From IMG/VR virus record IMGVR_UViG_3300045988_145381: a DNA stretch of 48,428 bases; one strand, 5' to 3'. Source of the DNA: a virus (lineage: Duplodnaviria; Heunggongvirae; Uroviricota; Caudoviricetes). Positions 1 to 42,246 of the stretch are shown in pieces. The number at the start of each line of letters is the position of its first letter. The stretch's first letter is position 1. The translations under genes were made by a program, and so were the position numbers. Under the pieces are notes generated by a model. The model worked only from the letters and a program-made list of their open reading frames with translations, searched no databases and was not told the DNA's origin.

Positions 1-128
1 GTTGACACCCTCGCATAACCATATTGCATACTTTCTAAACCGCGATTGTTGCTAAAAGCGGGAAAAAATATCGTTCAGACGACACAGAGGCAATTCGCAA
101 AAACCTCGGTTTACAGGAAACGGTAAAT
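1..128. repeat. 128-bp sequence identical to 48301..48428 (circular contig overlap)
   Basis: First 128 nt of the window recur exactly at the 3' end; the boundary coincides with the invertase crossover site. Confidence 0.9.
103..127. promoter_or_regulatory. DNA-invertase crossover site, left inverted repeat (gix/cix-like)
   Basis: acctcggtttacaggaaacggtaaa is the perfect reverse complement of 3155..3179; it lies about 75 bp upstream of the invertase start (wrap-around). Confidence 0.75.
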
Positions 129-1064
129 CAGGCTTCTGGCGCATTACAGAAAAACCAGAACGGCGCAGATATTCCGGGAAAAGATACCTTCACCAAAAAT
201 ATTGGGGCCTGCCGCGCATATAGCGCATGGCTGGATATTGGTGGCGATAGTCAGGTCTGGACAACCGCGCAATTTATTTCGTGGCTGGAGAGTCAGGGAG
301 CATTTAACCATCCTTACTGGATGTGCAAAGGCTCATGGGCTTATGCAAATAATAAGGTCATTACAGATACAGGTTGCGGAAATATTTGTCTTGCAGGTGC
401 TGTGGTGGAAGTTATTGGCACTCGCGGCGCAATGACCATACGCGTTACCACGCCGAGCACGTCCAGCGGTGGAGGAATTACTAACGCTCAATTCACTTAT
501 ATTAATCATGGTGATGCTTACGCTCCTGGCTGGCGACGAGACTACAACACGAAAAATCAACAACCTGCATTTGCTTTAGGGCAAACAGGAAGCACTGTCG
601 GAAATGATAAAGCTGTTGGCTGGAACTGGAATAGCGGGGTCTATAACGCAAATATTGGTGGCGCATCGACATTAATCCTCCACTTCAATATGAATACGGG
701 GAGCTGCCCTGCTGCACAGTTCCGCGTGAATTACAGAAATGGCGGAATCTTTTATCGTTCAGCGCGTGATGGTTATGGCTTTGAAGCTGACTGGTCAGAG
801 TTTTACACCACAACCCGCAAACCCTCTGCGGGAGATGTTGGTGCATATACGCAGGCAGAATGTAACTCAAGGTTTATTACAGGTATTCGCCTTGGCGGTC
901 TGTCATCTGTTCAGACATGGAATGGTCCCGGCTGGTCTGACAGGTCAGGTTATGTCGTTACGGGTTCAGTTAACGGAAACCGTGATGAATTAATTGATAC
1001 AACTCAGGCAAGGCCAATTCAGTATTGCATTAATGGAACGTGGTATAACGCGGGGAGTATTTAA
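104..1064 (+). CDS. silent alternative tail-fibre C-terminal cassette (no own start; fused to the constant part after inversion)
   Basis: Frame is open from 39 to 1064 without an upstream ATG; encodes ...LGLQETVN..., matching residues 454-461 of the expressed 792-aa fibre; C-terminal INGTWYN motif shared with the expressed fibre. Confidence 0.65.
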
Positions 1065-1066
1065 TT

Positions 1067-1600
1067 ATGATGCACTTAAAAAATATTACTGCTGGCAACC
1101 CTAAAACAAAAGAGCAATACCAGCTAACGAAACAATTTAACATCAAATGGCTTTACTCTGAGGACGGAAAAAACTGGTATGAGGAACAAAAGAATTTCCA
1201 GCCAGACACTTTGAAAATGGTCTATGACCATAACGGCGTTATTATTTGTATTGAAAAGGATGTTTCAGCAATTAATCCGGAAGGCGCAAGCGTCGTTGAA
1301 TTACCTGATATTACAGCAAATCGCCGTGCTGACATTTCGGGTAAATGGATGTTCAAAGATGGCGTAGTGGTAAAACGAACTTATACCGAGGAAGAGCAGA
1401 GGCAACAGGCGGAAAATGAAAAGCAAAGCCTGCTACAGCTCGTCAGGGATAAAACCCAGCTATGGGACTCACAGCTACGGCTGGGCATCATTTCCGACGA
1501 GAATAAACAAAAATTAACCGAGTGGATGCTCTATGCGCAGAAAGTCGAATCTACAGACACCTCCAGCCTGCCAGTAACATTTCCCGAACAACCTGAATGA
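1067..1600 (+). CDS. tail fibre assembly chaperone (Tfa), partner of the silent cassette
   Basis: 177-aa ORF directly after the alternative cassette; clear paralog of the 175-aa ORF at 1629..2156 (MMHLKNI.AGN.KT.EQY.LTK...). Confidence 0.7.
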
Positions 1601-1603
1601 GAC

Positions 1604-1630
1604 AAGGCCCGATAGCGGGCCTTAATTTTT
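1604..1630. terminator. hairpin terminator between convergent tfa genes
   Basis: aaggccc/gggcctt stem followed by a T-run, between the two convergent tfa ORFs. Confidence 0.5.
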
Positions 1631-2156
1631 ATTCAGGCTTTTGTGGCCATTCAGGATTTGCCGTATCCACACGGCTGACCAGAACACTGTAGCGTTCCCA
1701 TGACTCCAGTCGTGCGCGCTCCTCATCCGTCGCCATATTCAGCCTGACAGCGCGTTCCAGTGGCTGAATAACGCTTTCTGCTTCGGAAAGTAACGCGGCC
1801 TTTTGTGATTCGGCCTGTTGTTGCTGTTCGTCAGCCGTATAAATCCGTTTAACCACAGCTCCGTCCTTAAACATCCACTTCCCTGAATCATCGGCACGAC
1901 GATTGGCTGTTATATCGGGAACCTCAACGACGCTAAAGCCTTCAGGGTTAAGCGTAGAGGCATCCTTGGTGATAGCGACAATAATATTATTTTCATCGTA
2001 AACAATCTTTATTGTGTCTGGCTGAAAGTTTTTCACTTCCTCATACCAGTTTTTTCCGTCCTCAGAGTAAAGCCAGATAACTCCGTGTTTCTTTGTTAAT
2101 TCGTACTGCTCAAGTGTTTTAGCGTTACCCGCTTTAATGTTCTTTAAGTGCATCAT
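1629..2156 (-). CDS. tail fibre assembly chaperone (Tfa), expressed orientation
   Basis: 175-aa ORF immediately downstream of the tail fibre gene; paralog of 1067..1600. Confidence 0.75.
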
Positions 2157-2157
2157 A

Positions 2158-4536
2158 TTAAACGCTCGCTACATTATACCAGGTGCCATTTATATACTTT
2201 TGAACGGGTCTGTAATAAACGCCCGCTATATTATCGGCAGAGTTGGACCCTGTATCCTGAACATTAATACCAGACAATACATGACCTGACGGGCACTGGA
2301 AATTCCATGTTTGCCAGTTGTTCACTCCATAATATTGCTGTGAACCAAGTCGAACATCTTTCACATATCTGGAATCAAAATTGCCATAGTTGCCGGGAAT
2401 AACTTGCGCACCGCAAAGCCAGTTTCCGTTATTATCCATGTACGCCTGACCATCGGTGCCATTGGCTGTCCTTGAATTATTAATCATGTAGATGCCAAAT
2501 TGCTTGTTCCCCAGTCCACCTATCATGAACTTGCGGTCGGCGTGATTCTGGCGAAGCAACGCCTGAGCGCTATCAGTGTTAACTATATTTTTCCCAAAGA
2601 TAGCGTTGTTATCGCGCATCTGAATCCACATACCATTACTGCTGTTAATAGCAAAACGGTCTGAAAGTGTCTCCCCTGAAACATTAAGACCACGCCCCAT
2701 CGAAACAGCGCCAGTAGCGTTATTAATCCATAATGGCCTTAATCCGTTATAAGTCCCCATGTTGTCACCGGAGTTTGTCAACATGAAGTATGTATTTGAA
2801 CCATCATTACGAATAAAGAATCCGTAATTACCATAAGCAATACGTAGGCCGTTTGCTGATTTTGATATGACTTCGCCATTTACAATGGCATTGACAAGAA
2901 CATACAAAGCATCCCATTTAAGATTCATCAGGTCTTTTGTTGTGGTACTTTGTTTGCTTCTCCATTTGAAATATTCATTGCCGTTGTCGCCTGTCTCAAA
3001 CCACATGTATGAATCAGTGTCACCATCGGCATCATTTTTAAATCCAATCTTCGCCCAGTCAGTATTTCGAATCCAGGCAAGGATTGAGTCATTTTCAAAA
3101 GTAAGCCCGCCGGACAAGGTATCGCCTGTCTTTTGAACGGCGTTACCAGCCTTGTTTACCGTTTCCTGTAAACCGAGGTATTCGATAACGGCAGCAACGG
3201 TCGATTTCGCAAGAATATCCCGCCCGACTTTTGTCAGGGTTGCCAGGCTGGCGACATCATTCCCCGTAAAATACGGAAACTTGTCTGCCGCAGTAGCAAG
3301 CCCGGCCAGCGCCGTCAGGGTGGCATCTTTCGGTTGCTTACCCGCAAGCGCGTTAGTCATGGTGGTCGCAAAATTCGGGTCGTTTCCCAGAGCCGCCGCT
3401 AACTCGTTCAGCGTATTCAGTGCGTCAGGTGACGAGTCCACGAGGGCAGCGATCGCAGCCATAACGAAAGCCGTGCTTGCGATTTGGGTATTATTCGTTC
3501 CCTGTCGCGCAGTTGGCGTTGTTGGCGTTCCGGTCAACGCAGGACTGTTTAAGGGCGCTTTCTTGTTCGTTTCATCCATTACCGCCTTGACCGCTTTCGA
3601 TGTCGCGGCCAGTGTTTCAGACGTGCTGTTGGTGGAACTACTGAGCTGAGTTATTCCCCTTACAGTCAGTGAAGCTACAGGCACATTTGTTATCTGCTCC
3701 CACGAATGCGTGTGATTGGACGGAGCCTTTCCGGCCGCAAGATCATACGCTGCCTTAACAGCCTTTGGTGTTGCTGCTAGCGTTTCAGACGTGCTGTTGG
3801 TGGCACTACTGAGCTGAACAATCCCTTTTCGCGCTGTGGTAGCGTCCTGTGCGGTGTATTTGCCATTAGCCAGGTCATATGCTGCCTTAACAGCCTTAGG
3901 CGTCGCAGCAAGCGTTTCAGACGAGCTATTGGTGGCGCTGCTAAGTTGAACAAAGCCTTTTGAGGTTAAAGTTGCATCAGGATGATTACGTGATTGTTCA
4001 TGTTTCACAATGGCTTGCTTAAGCCGCTTTGCTGAAACAGCAAGGGAATCATCTGTACCGTCATCAATTTCTTGTTCATTGGCAAATCTTGCAACCCCAA
4101 CAACAGTTTCGGTTGCGGGAGGATTAATAAACTCAATATCACCAAATGTAATATTTTTAGTATCAAGAGTCTTGATTGCTATGTCACTTGATATTAAAGC
4201 AATAGTAGATGATGCTTTATTTATTATTGCTTGTTCTTGCGAGTATACAGCAAACAACGTTCCCTTATTTGTATACAATCCTATTGTATGGACAACATAC
4301 TCATCTTTACTATCATCCTTCGCCGTTACATGAATTGTATCAGGGGAAACAACTTTGCCACCTATTGTGGTAAGTCGTTTTATTTCGTTTGTTATATTTG
4401 TTTGTGAAGTTGACGTGACATAATATCTACTACCTAAACCAACAGAAACAATCTCAACTTTATTTGTTCCTGTTTTGTTGGCATTAACCAGCTCCTGACG
4501 CCCGGCGTCAGTCATCGTAAATAATAATTTACTCAC
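2158..4536 (-). CDS. tail fibre protein (constant N-terminal part plus currently expressed variable C-terminal part)
   Basis: 792-aa ORF with three tandem ~33-aa repeats (G[IF][27 protein letters not shown]) typical of phage tail-fibre repeats; crossover site inside the ORF; followed by tfa. Confidence 0.85.
3155..3179. promoter_or_regulatory. DNA-invertase crossover site, right inverted repeat (inside tail fibre ORF)
   Basis: Perfect reverse complement of 103..127; falls at codons ~453-461 of the fibre. Confidence 0.75.
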
Positions 4537-29315: not shown

Positions 29316-29391
29316 TGGTGGCCCCTACCGGATTTGAACCGATGACCGTGCGATTATGAGTCGCCTGCTCTAACCACTGAGCTAAGGGGCC
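29316..29391 (-). tRNA. tRNA, anticodon CAU (Ile2-like or Met)
   Basis: 76-nt cloverleaf GGCCCCTTAGCTCAGTGGTTAGAGCAGGCGACTCATAATCGC...GGTTCAAATCCGGTAGGGGCCACCA with encoded CCA; 5' half matches E. coli ileX-type tRNA as recalled from memory. Confidence 0.85.
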
Positions 29392-37525: not shown

Positions 37526-38188
37526 ATGAAAAGCAACGACGAGAACATCAAGAAAGAAATAGGTCTGCGCATTCAGACTCTACGGAAACAATCCGGCATG
37601 ACTGCCGGAGATCTCCAGCAAGTCACTGGAATAGGCTTAAGCACCTTGCAGAACTATGAGGCCGGATTAAGACAACCATCTATACCTGCCATCAAGAAAA
37701 TCGCGCACGCCCTGAAAGCATCAGCGCCTTACATCGCGTGCTTAACAGATAACCCGTTCCCACCCCAGAATACTAACGCTCCTGTTATTCCTGGGCTTGT
37801 AGCTATAAAAAATGACATAGCATCGCACGCCGGAGAAAAGCCAGTGCTGGCGATAGAACAGGAGATTTTACGAAGCAAGAACATCAACCCATCGTCTCTG
37901 TCAGTTCTCCAGAGCAACGATGAGCTAAAGCTAATGTCACCAACAATATCCCCTGGCTCCCAAGTCCTGATTAATACAGACGATACAGAGATTCATGAGG
38001 GGATCTATGCCCTTGAAGACAGAAATGGCCTGGTTGTTTTGAGGCACTGTAGAGTCATACCGGGTGACAATGCTGTTATGCTGTCAACCGAAAGGGATGC
38101 TGAAATGAACACTAAGCATCTGAATAACGAGGAATTTAAGCGTTATAAAGTTCTTGGCCGCGTAGTTAGTGTTGTCAACTGGTTATGA
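37526..38188 (+). CDS. CI-like repressor (HTH domain plus S24 LexA-like peptidase domain)
   Basis: 220-aa ORF; N-terminal HTH (...QSGMTAGDLQQVTGIGLSTLQNYEAG...), Ala-Gly in HAGEK, C-terminal S24-like region. Confidence 0.75.
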   Translation: MKSNDENIKKEIGLRIQTLRKQSGMTAGDLQQVTGIGLSTLQNYEAGLRQPSIPAIKKIAHALKASAPYIACLTDNPFPPQNTNAPVIPGLVAIKNDIASHAGEKPVLAIEQEILRSKNINPSSLSVLQSNDELKLMSPTISPGSQVLINTDDTEIHEGIYALEDRNGLVVLRHCRVIPGDNAVMLSTERDAEMNTKHLNNEEFKRYKVLGRVVSVVNWL

Positions 38189-38790: not shown

Positions 38791-39459
38791 ATGGAGTCTC
38801 GACAAATGACTATCTCTGTAGGTATTTTCAACGGAAAAGGCGGCGTAACCAAATCAACAATTGCCCGTGCTTTAGCAGTTGCTTATGCAAAGGCTGGCTG
38901 GAATGTATGCCTGATCGATATGGATGTGCTTAACGGAACGGTAACGCGTTGGGTACAACGCAGAATGGCCAACAATATCGAACCAGCAATCGCGGCGCAG
39001 CCGTGCGGCACACCATCACAAGTCCAGAAAATCATCGAATCAGAAGTATACGACCTGGTTATCGTCGATGGCGGTGCCTACGCATCTGAATCAGTACCGA
39101 AGCTCTCTGAATTTCTGGATATGGTTATTTTGCCAACCAGATTCTCTACCGATGACCTGGAAACCACCGTTAACACTGCTCACGGCATCGTTAAAAAGGG
39201 TGTACCAATCAAGAAAATTTGCATGGTGTTTTCCGGCGCGGCTGAAAACGAAGCTGACTATATTGAAGCCCAAGAGTACCTGGCTAATACGCCATACTTT
39301 GTTGTTGATAAGTACATTCCCCACAAGCCAGCTCTGAGCAAAGCTCAGGATAAGGGCTTAAGCCTCATTGAGTGCTCATACGTTGCGCCACGCAAAAAGG
39401 CAGACGACGTTATTCAGGGGATTATCAACCAGCTTGAGGCTCTGACTACTGCCGCGTAA
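38791..39459 (+). CDS. ParA/ParF-type partition ATPase
   Basis: 222-aa ORF with deviant Walker A (GIFNGKGGVTKST); start may be the second Met at 38806. Confidence 0.7.
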   Translation: MESRQMTISVGIFNGKGGVTKSTIARALAVAYAKAGWNVCLIDMDVLNGTVTRWVQRRMANNIEPAIAAQPCGTPSQVQKIIESEVYDLVIVDGGAYASESVPKLSEFLDMVILPTRFSTDDLETTVNTAHGIVKKGVPIKKICMVFSGAAENEADYIEAQEYLANTPYFVVDKYIPHKPALSKAQDKGLSLIECSYVAPRKKADDVIQGIINQLEALTTAA

Positions 39460-39502
39460 TATATAATTATAGTTTTATAGATTTATATAAGAGGGGATAC
39501 AC

Positions 39503-39751
39503 ATGGCCGCACCATCAAAACCACCAAAGAAGAACAGCAAAGGCGTACCGCCATCGATCGAACAACCGCAGGTTTTCGACCCGACTGAAACGCCAACCAG
39601 AACCAAATCAGGTGGGGCACAAATGGCGTTTAACGTCGACCCTGAATTTAAACGCGAGTACAAAACGTTCGCCAGCTCAATGGATATGTCATTGAAAGAA
39701 GTGCTGACAAAATCTTTTGAGTTACTCAAGGCTCAATACAACCAGAAGTAA
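39503..39751 (+). CDS. ParG-like small ribbon-helix-helix partition protein (putative)
   Basis: 82-aa ORF immediately after the ParA-like gene; flexible basic N-terminus and C-terminal strand-helix-helix-like segment. Confidence 0.5.
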   Translation: MAAPSKPPKKNSKGVPPSIEQPQVFDPTETPTRTKSGGAQMAFNVDPEFKREYKTFASSMDMSLKEVLTKSFELLKAQYNQK

Positions 39752-39813
39752 GAGAAGGTGACGGCCTCCAGCGCCAACTGTTGGCCGTCGCGACACAACA
39801 AGGGGAATTTGTT

Positions 39814-39963
39814 ATGTCCGAGCAACAATATACACGGTTACTAAAAACTCGTCTAATAGACCTCAAACGGCTGCAAGCTGGTCGCTTATTTGCCCTGCTA
39901 TCCACCAGGCCAGAATGGGTACGTGAAGCAGTTCTGAAAGGCTTAATGCGCTCAAGCGTTTAA
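39814..39963 (+). CDS. small hypothetical protein
   Basis: ORF 39781..39963 trimmed to MSEQQYTRLL... with aagggg Shine-Dalgarno. Confidence 0.3.
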   Translation: MSEQQYTRLLKTRLIDLKRLQAGRLFALLSTRPEWVREAVLKGLMRSSV

Positions 39964-39967
39964 ATTC

Positions 39968-39990
39968 AACCATAAAAAAGGCCCCCGAAG
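39968..39990 (-). terminator. rho-independent terminator (minus-strand orientation)
   Basis: ggcccccgaaggggcc hairpin with a T-run on the minus strand. Confidence 0.5.
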
Positions 39991-40001
39991 GGGCCTAATC
40001 G

Positions 40002-40124
40002 CTACTTGCTGCTAATGTTTATCGTCACATTTAGAGCGTTATCAGTAATCTTCCAACCCTCCCCATGTGGCGTAAACAAAGCTCCAGTAACAACGATAAA
40101 AATACACATACAGTATTTTTTCAT
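40002..40124 (-). CDS. small hydrophobic peptide (40 aa, MKKYCMCIFIVVTGALFTPHGEGW...)
   Basis: Read directly from sequence; Shine-Dalgarno-like aaggg upstream; terminator 39968..39990 immediately downstream. Confidence 0.25.
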   Translation of the reverse strand: MKKYCMCIFIVVTGALFTPHGEGWKITDNALNVTINISSK

Positions 40125-40520
40125 TGTATGGCCCTTACAGGCCGTTTCACGGCATCCCCACCGACGAAAACAACGCGAGAGCAAGCACGGCTGCTTGTGC
40201 TTGCATGTACGGCAACGGAGAATCCTCCCCTAAAGTCGGTGCCCGGGTGCGAATCGGCGGGAAGGTCCACAGGTATTTTACGATTATTTTAAGATTAGTA
40301 ATAGGAAAGAAATTAAACGAAAAAACTCGTTTATTTTCACAAAATCAGTAACCTACCCACAATCTGTGAGTTTGCAGGCACAACAAGAACCACAATTTTT
40401 TGAAGCATAATAGTGGACTATTATTACCTTTTGGGTAAAATTAACTTGCTGCTTGTGCTTGCGTGGTTGTTTATACAACAACGTAATGCTGAAAGGACCG
40501 CGAATCCGATCAGCACGAAA

Positions 40521-40549
40521 GAACCGTCCTCAATAGGGCGGTTTTTTTG
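40521..40549 (+). terminator. intrinsic terminator-like hairpin in the ant leader region
   Basis: Stem-loop followed by 7 T. Confidence 0.45.
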
Positions 40550-40690
40550 TTTCTGCCTACCAATAAACCCACGCTATGTGGTTGTCTCTGTTAAAATCCC
40601 GCCGTATTGACATGAATGCGCCATTGGTGGACACTTTCCGAGCCGTAGCAAAATCTACGGTCGGGATTGGCGTCCCGATTGCACAATGGC

Positions 40691-40716
40691 GCATACCGCG
40701 TTAGCGGTTTTTTTAT
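40691..40716 (+). terminator. intrinsic terminator-like hairpin in the ant leader region
   Basis: accgc-gtta-gcggt stem-loop followed by 7 T. Confidence 0.45.
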
Positions 40717-40876
40717 GCGTAAAGCACTGCTACACCCAAATTATGGTGGGGCGTGCGGGGGCGGAGAAATCCGCGCCGGGTTTGTCATTGTGCCGGTTAC
40801 GCCAACCCTGTACGTCTCACCACCATATTGATTGGCGTCATTGGTGGTGATAGTTCCTTTAATCGGAGATATCACA

Positions 40877-41068
40877 ATGACAAACCTACCCCATGACTAT
40901 TACGTCAACCTCGTAAAGATCCTTCTCAAGAAAGCCTCATACGCCGATAAATTCCGCCTGGCTGAAATCATCGAGCGCGAAGCTATGCGCATCGCCAGCA
41001 ACGATAACGCTGTTTCTGACGCAAAAATCTCCCTCGTAACCAAAGTAGTTATGGGAGGTGCAAAATGA
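40877..41068 (+). CDS. small protein overlapping the ant start (Icd-like position)
   Basis: 63-aa ORF (MTNLPHDYYVNL...) within ORF 40832..41068; ATGA overlap with the ant-like gene. Confidence 0.35.
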   Translation: MTNLPHDYYVNLVKILLKKASYADKFRLAEIIEREAMRIASNDNAVSDAKISLVTKVVMGGAK

Positions 41069-42246
41069 AAACGCTTCCGACCGTTAACACCCTACAGCCT
41101 ATCCTGCATAACCAGCTCCCCGTTATCACTACTGAACTACTGGCGCAATTGTATGGAACCGAGCGCCAACGTCTGACAAACAATTTCAATAGAAACAAGG
41201 AACGTTTTATAGAAGGTAAACACTTTTTTAGGATAGAAGGTAAAGAGTTACGAGAGTTGAAGAACAAAAACTCTTTAAGAGTTCCTGTGAGAGTAGTTAA
41301 CGAACCATCTTTAAGAGGGTTACAAATTCCCCCGAAAGTTCGCTCCCTCATCCTCTGGACAGAACGCGGGGCTGCACGTCACGCTAAAATGCTTGAAACT
41401 AACCAAGCGTGGGATGTGTTCGAACGGCTGGAAGACTGCTATTTCAACCAGAACGCGCAAACGGCCGCGACCGTAACCGTCTCACCAAACAATGCTCGTG
41501 AGGTTGTCGATACGCTCAACGCCAAACCGATGTTTTACATTAAAGTGTGCAACAACGAGCCACTCACAACCTCAGCCGATGTTGCCCAGGCATTCAGCAC
41601 CACAAACAATTCCATCGTTATGGCCATCGATGCGTTACGCATTCCTCGCACAGCTGCGGCGCGTCATTTCTTTAAAGAGCAACGACCGTTGGAAGGAAGC
41701 GACCGCGAAATAACAATCTATCGCATGACAAAAGACGGATTTACCTTGCTCATGGAAAGTATCGACGGTCCAGGCGTGAAGGATATCAAGCTGGCCTACA
41801 TTGAAGCCTTTAACGCTATCAGCAGCGTGTTAAAAACACAGTACGAGCGCGATCTGGCTAAACGACTGTACCAGGAAAAAACGATTATCCGCGCGGCAAC
41901 AGAGCATAATCGGCTATTAACGGAACCGAACTACAGGAAGGAACTAATCAAGGAGTTTGACAAGGCAACAGGGAAAACCAAAGCGGCGCTAAGTCTGCCA
42001 GCAATGACTCAGGAAAATGTGATATCAGCCTTACTTCTTGATCTGCTCAGAAACGCCAGAGCACTTATCAGCTTTGACGAAAACCTGAATCCTCAGCTCA
42101 AGCTACTACCACCGACAGGCAAAGTAGTCGACCAGGCTGATCACAACAGCATACTCAGCGTACTGGATGCAAACCTGCCAGCCAGGACACTACAGGATCT
42201 GATAAAAACATGTGCTGATAAGCTGGCACAGAAAAGCAGACCATAA
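41065..42246 (+). CDS. ant: antirepressor (ORF6N/KilA-N-like plus Rha/Ant-like domains)
   Basis: 393-aa ORF; N-terminal ...ITTELLAQLYGTERQRLTNNFNRNKERFIEGKHFFRIEGKELREL... and central Rha/Ant-like region; hairpin terminator at 42252..42271. Confidence 0.65.
   Translation: MKTLPTVNTLQPILHNQLPVITTELLAQLYGTERQRLTNNFNRNKERFIEGKHFFRIEGKELRELKNKNSLRVPVRVVNEPSLRGLQIPPKVRSLILWTERGAARHAKMLETNQAWDVFERLEDCYFNQNAQTAATVTVSPNNAREVVDTLNAKPMFYIKVCNNEPLTTSADVAQAFSTTNNSIVMAIDALRIPRTAAARHFFKEQRPLEGSDREITIYRMTKDGFTLLMESIDGPGVKDIKLAYIEAFNAISSVLKTQYERDLAKRLYQEKTIIRAATEHNRLLTEPNYRKELIKEFDKATGKTKAALSLPAMTQENVISALLLDLLRNARALISFDENLNPQLKLLPPTGKVVDQADHNSILSVLDANLPARTLQDLIKTCADKLAQKSRP

Follow-up and report, generated by a model that had tools for sequence, protein, structure and literature searches.

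A probable timPR type I toxin-antitoxin module beside the partition locus of an Escherichia coli phage-plasmid

The DNA considered here is the IMG/VR virus record IMGVR_UViG_3300045988_145381, a stretch of 48,428 nucleotides (the window, always meant at its full length) that represents a ~48 kb myovirus-type phage-plasmid of Escherichia coli. An original prediction had placed at 39968-40124 an unannotated gene for a 40-aa hydrophobic peptide with its own terminator, next to the partition (par) locus, and had proposed a small membrane toxin or an exclusion peptide. The open reading frame (ORF), the Shine-Dalgarno-like sequence and the strong minus-strand terminator all lie where they had been placed, and the ORF adjoins a ParA-type ATPase gene and an 82-aa partner ORF located just downstream. 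The proposed extent covers the ORF and its terminator, but the full unit, which includes a 146-nt leader, is much larger (39974-40270). The following features, named according to the assignment that we propose, are found at the locus.

39974..40270, minus strand: putative timP mRNA (RyfA RNA) of ~297 nt, from the 5' end aligned with that of K-12 RyfA to the U tract of the terminator
40002..40124, minus strand: putative timP ORF, with its ATG at 40124, its stop codon TAG at 40004-40002, 40 codons plus stop, starting at mRNA position +147
39974..39996, minus strand: intrinsic terminator of timP, found by a terminator scan and aligned with the terminal hairpin of the Rfam ryfA model
40275..40280, minus strand: presumed -10-like hexamer of the timP promoter, TAAAAT, read from the sequence
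40414..40441, plus strand: sigma-70-like promoter of TimR, with TGGACT, a 16-nt spacer and TAAAAT, found by a promoter scan
40448..40548, plus strand: putative TimR small RNA (sRNA) of ~101 nt, with its seed at 40448-40465, a conserved body hairpin at 40488-40514 and a terminator at 40522-40548

In a scan of the whole window, the minus-strand unit matches the Rfam family ryfA (RF00126) along the complete model (positions 1-296 of 296), with 143.5 bits for a gathering score of 80 and an E-value of 5.5e-37. The fold of this RNA has a z-score of -4.3 relative to shuffled sequences, and its 146-nt leader is structured. The ORF that follows is translated as MKKYCMCIFIVVTGALFTPHGEGWKITDNALNVTINISSK, and its Shine-Dalgarno sequence (TAAGGG at 40137-40132, minus strand) is located 7 nt 5' of the ATG. 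The terminator is made of AGGCCCCTTCGGGGGCCT and a T tract, with a stem of 7 pairs including 6 G-C; 7 terminator-like sites are found in this 1.2 kb region versus 1.5 expected from shuffled sequences. At the position aligned with the presumed -10-like hexamer, the second plasmid lineage of the family has TAATAT. An upstream TTG start, giving a 60-aa ORF from 40184 inside stem-loops 2 and 3 of the leader, was rejected because the ATG context CAATGAA is kept in all homologues. Weak Rfam matches (RNAI, Phe_leader, Atu_C8 and PhrS) over TimR or the 3' end of timP were below their gathering scores and were disregarded.

All 40 residues of the encoded peptide align with the full 40-position profile of the NCBIfam family NF040796 (toxic_TimP), with an E-value of 7.1e-5 and 23 bits, and the variant found in Logan reaches 28.6 bits. 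The peptide can be aligned end to end with TimP from E. coli K-12 (MKIRCFCIVLIVSGALLTEVNNNRSLSGDNLLVVNNLQSSK), according to the pattern MKxxCxCIxxIVxGALxT...SSK, and is 47-51% identical to TimP from Yersinia and Serratia plasmids (51% for TimP from pGDT4). It resembles E. coli TimP less than it does the type found in Yersinia, Serratia and Erwinia, to which its C-terminal half (GEGWKITDNxLNVTIN) is similar. The mean Kyte-Doolittle hydropathy is 2.36 for residues 4-17 versus -0.53 for the remainder; TimP from K-12 has the same profile (2.34). No Pfam or PHROGs family matched the peptide. In 11 lineages, the frame is kept at 39-41 codons despite a nucleotide divergence of up to 40%, with pairwise dN/dS (ratio of nonsynonymous to synonymous substitutions, Nei-Gojobori) of 0.06-0.67, mostly near 0.2. 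This substitution pattern indicates that the 40-aa peptide is under purifying selection. Hence, the hydrophobic N-terminus was confirmed, as was the conservation of the ORF in related elements on which the original prediction had staked the gene, and the small membrane toxin that it had suggested is supported by homology to TimP.

RyfA had initially been taken for a non-coding RNA before it was shown to be the mRNA of TimP, an inner-membrane protein of 38 aa whose overexpression makes the membrane leaky and stops growth and whose translation is repressed by the neighbouring sRNA TimR (Andresen et al. 2020, PMC7667032). In Salmonella, the timP ORF starts at +145, the replacement of its ATG by AAG abolishes toxicity without lowering the mRNA level, and TimR decays faster than the timP mRNA. 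The RefSeq annotation of K-12 includes ryfA (b4440), timP (b4812) and timR (b4811). According to the authors of the timPR studies, the biological role of the system is not established.

In the window, the putative TimR is encoded 177 bp upstream of the timP unit, on the opposite strand and in divergent orientation. A repeat search revealed that the plus-strand sequence 40190-40207, located in the timP leader (GCTGCTTGTGCTTGCATG), recurs at 40448-40465 (GCTGCTTGTGCTTGCGTG) with 17 of 18 positions identical. Therefore, a plus-strand RNA starting at 40448 would form 18 contiguous pairs, one of them G-U, with positions 64-81 of the mRNA (target CAUGCAAGCACAAGCAGC, 40190-40207, minus strand). By our estimate, the chance expectation of an 18-nt complementarity within 600 bp is ~1e-4. 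The target is located at -83 to -66 from the ATG, which is essentially its place in K-12 and in the other lineages examined. Furthermore, the predicted sRNA folds with a z-score of -4.6 and ends with a hairpin followed by U7. Its body (CTGAAAGGACCGCGAATCCGATCAGCA) and terminator are homologous to those of K-12 timR and of ten other loci, and the positions of the -35 and -10 boxes are conserved in an alignment of 12 TimR loci. The original prediction had suggested a search for an overlapping antisense RNA; the candidate regulator is a non-overlapping divergent sRNA (40448-40548) with an 18-nt pairing to the leader.

No Rfam family matched TimR in the window, and Ysr224 and AgrB matched the TimR region in two other loci only. 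One of them is the TimR position of Pantoea latae (L024 1188-1268, minus strand), where AgrB (RF02891) scores 40.7 for a gathering score of 40. This hints at a kinship between TimR and AgrB, the antitoxin of dinQ, or at a loose AgrB model. The AT-rich spacer of 177 bp (40271-40447) contains a 12-nt inverted repeat, GAAATTAAACGA / TCGTTTATTTTC, at 40309-40320 / 40327-40338. The spacer between the promoters is the most diverged part of the locus, which is ~83% identical between the plasmid lineages, versus 98-100% for par.

The structure of the timP leader has been described in two studies (Eleftheraki and Holmqvist 2024, PMC11228461; Eleftheraki et al. 2026, PMC13000454). It folds into four stem-loops; stem-loop 2 contains the TimR site, and stem-loop 4 traps the Shine-Dalgarno sequence. 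Translation requires a pseudoknot between stem-loops 1 and 3 (sites 1 and 3) and the pairing of site 2 with site 4, and TimR binding breaks the pseudoknot. The pairing of sites 2 and 4 has a role in freeing the Shine-Dalgarno sequence (PMC13000454). The predicted counterparts in the window are as follows.

40225..40264, minus strand: stem-loop 1, from the Rfam structure line, with pseudoknot site 1 (CACCGAC) at 40235-40241
40209..40213, minus strand: site 2 (GCCGU), which pairs with site 4 (ACGGC, 40141-40145), the 5' flank of stem-loop 4
40181..40204, minus strand: stem-loop 2, which overlaps the TimR target (40190-40207) and covers together with it 40181..40207
40146..40179, minus strand: stem-loop 3, with pseudoknot site 3 (GUCGGUG) at 40159-40165
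40128..40145, minus strand: stem-loop 4, from the Rfam structure line, which sequesters the Shine-Dalgarno sequence (40132-40137)

These pairings were examined in an alignment of 15 leaders, namely those of the window, two other phage-plasmid lineages, a Logan contig, two IMG/VR contigs, plasmids from Yersinia and Serratia, chromosomes of Erwinia, Pantoea and Kalamiella, and K-12. The outer helix of stem-loop 1 is 96.7% paired with compensatory changes, the helix formed by sites 2 and 4 is 98.7% paired and that of stem-loop 4 is 92.4% paired. Sites 1 and 3 form seven perfect base pairs in the window (the K-12 counterpart being CGCUGGC/GCCAGUG), and the pseudoknot helix is 96.2% paired with 3 pairs altered on both sides. 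Taken together, stem-loops 1-4 are 92.1% paired, versus 37-47% when the partners are slid, with 12 pairs altered on both sides; the pseudoknot and the helix of sites 2 and 4 are jointly 97.2% paired, versus 28-62%. These comparisons indicate that the four stem-loops, the pseudoknot and the pairing between sites 2 and 4 known from Salmonella are kept, with compensatory changes, as predicted pairings.

Therefore, we consider it probable (about 85%), from the sequence data, that the phage-plasmid carries a complete timPR type I toxin-antitoxin module, in which the ORF is the toxin gene, timP. Several observations weigh against this assignment. With its 23 bits, the peptide is below the curated cutoff of NF040796 (45) and the score of K-12 TimP (86.8), and it is only 38% identical to the latter; the Logan variant and TimP from pGDT4, which PGAP annotates, are intermediates that bridge this gap. 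On paper, the timP promoter is weak: no good -35 box was seen and the promoter scan made no call at this site. Moreover, it is doubtful whether the pairing of sites 1 and 2, which is the inactive lock in Salmonella, is kept: a register that we inferred from the S1/S2 mutations has only 72% of the alignment cells paired, with a central A.C mismatch in the window. An alternative register (GGCA/UGCC) gives 4 pairs in the window and shows no covariation.

The score below the cutoff is likely the reason why the gene is not annotated. As the original prediction had assumed, no feature is found on the ORF in the records of the 58 related plasmids and 3 phages; TimR is likewise unannotated in these records. 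A protein database search with the peptide retrieved only 2 near relatives, probably because short ORFs are rarely called, and therefore says little about its distribution.

Over its first 23 kb, the window shares 98% identity with the virion genomes of the Yersinia phages vB_YpM_39, 41 and 44, which carry P2/Mu-type tail and head genes. In addition, DNA-level matches to the locus were found in 62 plasmid records, most of them from Escherichia and every one typed as non-mobilizable. Together, these matches identify the element as a phage-plasmid. The putative timPR module is located between its immunity module and the partition locus described below.

38791..39751, plus strand: partition locus, with a ParA-type ATPase gene at 38791-39459 and an 82-aa partner ORF at 39503-39751

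The ATPase assignment is based on PHROG 164 (ParA-like, E-value of 2e-39), on the Pfam family CbiA/ParA/MipZ and on a RefSeq homologue named 'ParA family protein'. The par locus was found in 58 PLSDB plasmids and an intact timP ORF, at an identity of at least 90%, in 58 non-mobilizable plasmids. The accessions of the two sets coincide for the 55 that are listed, and the remaining 3 are consistent with the count. One of the 58 ORF matches spans residues 1-29 only and ends one base before the end of the record; it is read as an ORF split by the linearisation of the record. Therefore, the module is part of the backbone of the family. It is also present in the virion genomes of vB_YpM_39, 41 and 44 and in nine further viral contigs from IMG/VR, including two variants with 63-68% peptide identity.

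Among complete E. coli genomes, the phage-plasmid module was detected in 72 of 5426, including ATCC 25922, whose plasmid NZ_CP009073 belongs to the family, and is plasmid-borne in all but one place. More distant copies are carried by conjugative IncFII plasmids from Yersinia and Serratia, the copy of pGDT4 being annotated as timP. The homologues are mostly chromosomal or located on conjugative plasmids, without phage context. Searching genomes with a 4-sequence alignment retrieved only 7 loci. Distant-mode blastn of the plasmid locus against E. coli genomes did not reach chromosomal ryfA, the kinship between them being seen only at the level of covariance models, hidden Markov models (HMM) and alignments. 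A literature search retrieved nothing on phage- or plasmid-borne ryfA/timP or on these Yersinia phages; the Lopez-Diaz preprint and Pfeifer 2021 do not name the ~48 kb family and do not mention the module. What is newer is the phage-plasmid setting, the core status beside par and the predicted orthogonality to the chromosomal system, for which no describing paper was found; what is known is that the gene belongs to the characterised ryfA/timP-TimR family, of which it is a diverged member whose antitoxin is now located.

Several relatives show rearranged or additional copies. In the Yersinia similis plasmid NZ_CP007231 (L009 2851-2935) and in another locus (L020), the 5' part of the timP leader, including stem-loop 1, has given way to the reverse complement of a TimR body and terminator, joined at the shared seed/target. 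The seed repeat looks to have mediated this rearrangement. An intact divergent TimR was not detected there, and an Rfam match to Ysr224 (RF02770) is located just upstream in the Y. similis locus (L009 2677-2783). The chromosome of a Kalamiella sp. carries a tandem duplicate of timPR (L022 1353-1653 and 1845-2145), with two ryfA matches and two TimR that have differing seeds. In K-12, a second TimR-like sequence lies between the annotated timR and ryfA (NC_000913.3, ~2653650-2653790; L002 ~1650-1790, minus strand). This sequence, which the RefSeq table leaves without a feature, combines a TTGACA -35 box and a terminator with the body GGAAAGGCCGCGAACCGGACCAGC and overlaps an Rfam IS128 match on the opposite strand.

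The chromosomal timPR was found in 5426 of 5426 E. coli genomes and was never plasmid-borne. Therefore, a cell that carries the phage-plasmid has two systems. Their TimR seeds differ, being GCUGCUUGUGCUUGCGUG in the window and GCUGUGAAGCACCUGC in K-12. The duplex energies calculated for cognate and heterologous pairs are the following.

Window TimR with the window timP leader: -35.9 kcal/mol
K-12 TimR with the K-12 timP leader: -39.3 kcal/mol
K-12 TimR with the window timP leader: -24.7 kcal/mol
Window TimR with the K-12 timP leader: -21.0 kcal/mol
Shuffled seeds with the window timP leader: -21.6 +/- 3.1 kcal/mol

Since the heterologous energies are near the shuffled background, cross-repression is not predicted. 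Between the two main plasmid lineages, seed and target change together (G-C to A-U, G-U to G-C and A-U to G-U) and the lineages stay mutually compatible (-33.6 to -35.1 kcal/mol). Quite different seeds occupy this position in three additional lineages.

If the system works as in Salmonella, the full-length timP mRNA would switch to an active fold without processing. In this fold, the pseudoknot and the pairing of sites 2 and 4 would release the Shine-Dalgarno sequence from stem-loop 4. TimR would bind the active fold at stem-loop 2, destabilise the pseudoknot and block initiation. Once TimR is exhausted, TimP would be made and inserted in the inner membrane through its signal-like N-terminus, and a high dose could result in a leaky membrane and growth arrest.

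Such a module could act as a post-segregational stabiliser, i.e. an addiction module of the plasmid prophage. We propose this role tentatively, at somewhat less than even odds, because TimR decays faster than the mRNA in Salmonella and because the module is core, lies beside par and is predicted to be insulated from the host copy. Some data speak against an addiction role: deletion of timR in Salmonella leads to TimP synthesis without any growth defect, and TimP toxicity needed an overexpression of ~350-fold (PMC7667032). Furthermore, our literature search found no reported function for any mobile timPR. A more specific proposal, less likely than not, is that timPR of the phage-plasmid works in addiction or exclusion and is genetically insulated from its chromosomal counterpart: its seed and target would have diverged to the point that host TimR no longer silences the plasmid timP, and the seeds of the different lineages would define specificity groups.

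The module could also be devoted to phage defence or superinfection exclusion: shut-off of host transcription by a competing phage would lead to TimR decay, membrane collapse caused by TimP and abortive infection, and the host population of the resident phage-plasmid would thereby be protected. Other type I systems can exclude phages, and the exclusion of T4 by hok/sok is cited in PMC13000454; the exclusion peptide envisaged by the original prediction is consistent with such a function. However, deletion of timP or timR has no significant effect on P22 infection of Salmonella, and the peptide has no PHROGs match. Moreover, the placement between par and immunity and the presence in every family member fit maintenance at least equally. 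Exclusion is therefore an unlikely function.

Still less likely is that the locus mainly produces a non-coding sRNA of the RyfA type acting in trans on host mRNAs, the ORF being incidental. RyfA was originally annotated as a non-coding sRNA, and the RNA is highly structured (z-score of -4.3). Passages from several papers tie it to stress resistance, biofilm and virulence in uropathogenic E. coli (UPEC), avian pathogenic E. coli (APEC) and Shigella, and to ProQ binding. Against this, the frame, the length and the start position are kept at up to 40% nucleotide divergence with a dN/dS mostly of 0.1-0.4, the ATG-to-AAG change in Salmonella removed toxicity without a drop in mRNA, and the conserved leader elements are those that control translation. 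A dual function, as coding and regulatory RNA, is possible.

It seems very improbable that the peptide serves the lytic cycle, for example as a holin-like or membrane-depolarising accessory that a drop in TimR transcription upon induction would release. In favour of this view, the peptide is small and membrane-targeted, the phage that encodes it is functional, as attested by the virion isolates vB_YpM_39, 41 and 44, and timP adjoins the immunity region. However, timP lies outside any lysis cassette, the homologues are mostly devoid of phage context, as mentioned above, and no sign of induction-dependent control was found.

Finally, a chance open frame beside the terminator of something else, an idea suggested by the abundance of short ORFs in the region (dozens of at least 25 aa in 4.5 kb, so that a 40-codon ORF alone is within chance), is effectively refuted, since the Rfam ryfA match (E-value of 5e-37), the match of the whole peptide to the TimP HMM, the preserved frame under purifying selection (dN/dS below 1) and the cognate TimR point to a real gene.

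Other features of the element deserve mention. On the far side of TimR, the window carries on the plus strand (40642-40827 and 41065-42246) a region that resembles the immI-type immunity module of P1. Rfam models detect there isrK (67 bits), the C4 antisense RNA (72 bits) and its a1/b1 target (41.7 bits for a threshold of 46.7). An ORF6N/Rha antirepressor gene lies downstream of these RNAs, and a CI-like repressor is encoded at 37526-38188. The second plasmid lineage and the Yersinia phages have, between TimR and isrK/C4, an additional XRE-type helix-turn-helix gene that is absent from the window.

L003 953-1525; L010 2042-2614; L004 3356-3895: additional XRE-type gene in the second plasmid lineage and the Yersinia phages

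A 60-codon ORF (39781-39963, plus strand) is convergent on the timP terminator; one RefSeq plasmid has there a 49-aa hypothetical protein (WP_000003577.1), and no Pfam or PHROG match was obtained for this ORF. Elsewhere in the phage-plasmid are found a tRNA gene (29319-29391, minus strand; Rfam tRNA, 67 bits) and tail-fibre and tail-fibre-assembly genes (~100-3961) that share 93-95% identity with the genes of the invertible G segment in Mu, D108 and P88. A hin DNA invertase is annotated in the related Yersinia phages, inside the region that matches the first 23 kb of the window.

The type I system timPR, characterised only recently, has an unusual, processing-free RNA switch. Its diverged core copy in a widespread E. 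coli phage-plasmid family would offer a setting for studying TimP as a maintenance or exclusion toxin. Moreover, the curated TimP model misses the phage-plasmid clade, which reveals an annotation gap. The co-varying seeds and targets and the compensatory changes in the pseudoknot provide independent comparative support for the published structural model. If the module truly were a working addiction or exclusion device insulated from the host system, this would be the first natural role assigned to timPR and would provide a ready set of natural orthogonal TimR/timP pairs.

The putative module can be compared with several known systems. It shares with timPR from Salmonella and E. coli K-12 the mRNA family, the ORF start (+147 versus +145) and the peptide size (40 aa versus 38-41). 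It also has in common with them the hydrophobic signal-like N-terminus, the divergent upstream TimR with a homologous body, the seed pairing at stem-loop 2, stem-loops 1-4, the pseudoknot and the pairing of sites 2 and 4. It differs by its location on a phage-plasmid beside par, whereas the known system is chromosomal, between sseA and sseB. The seed and target sequences differ from those of K-12, with no predicted cross-pairing, and the promoters are 177 bp apart instead of ~400 bp in K-12; the inactive lock formed by sites 1 and 2 in Salmonella has an A.C mismatch in the inferred register.

The timP genes of IncFII plasmids from Yersinia and Serratia (for example in pGDT4, NC_011759, annotated as 'small toxic inner membrane protein TimP') also belong to mobile timPR with an adjacent TimR, and they encode the closest relatives of the peptide outside the phage-plasmid clade. 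However, they are located in the transfer region of large conjugative plasmids, which is neither phage nor beside par, their TimR starts only ~60-70 bp from timP and their seeds are different. Furthermore, PGAP annotates the copy of pGDT4 but none of the phage-plasmid copies.

tisB/istR-1, zorO/orzO, shoB/ohsC and dinQ/agrB also consist of an adjacent divergent toxin/sRNA pair with a short complementarity far upstream of the ribosome-binding site. In contrast, these chromosomal systems require mRNA processing or a ribosome standby site, and their toxins lack a signal-like sequence. As for phd/doc of the phage-plasmid P1, it is likewise an addiction module of a plasmid prophage with C4/Ant-type immunity, but it is a type II system (protein-protein) with unrelated sequence and mechanism.

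Like the putative phage-plasmid timPR, the type I system hok/sok (parB) is carried by a plasmid, R1; its toxin is a small inner-membrane protein translated from a stable mRNA, and its antisense RNA is labile. The two are unrelated in sequence. The overlap of Sok with the hok/mok leader is in cis, and 3' processing and the upstream ORF mok are required for hok, whereas timP needs no processing and has a separate antitoxin with 18-nt complementarity. hok/sok is the classical post-segregational killing module, and it is a comparable maintenance role that is proposed here for timPR of the phage-plasmid.

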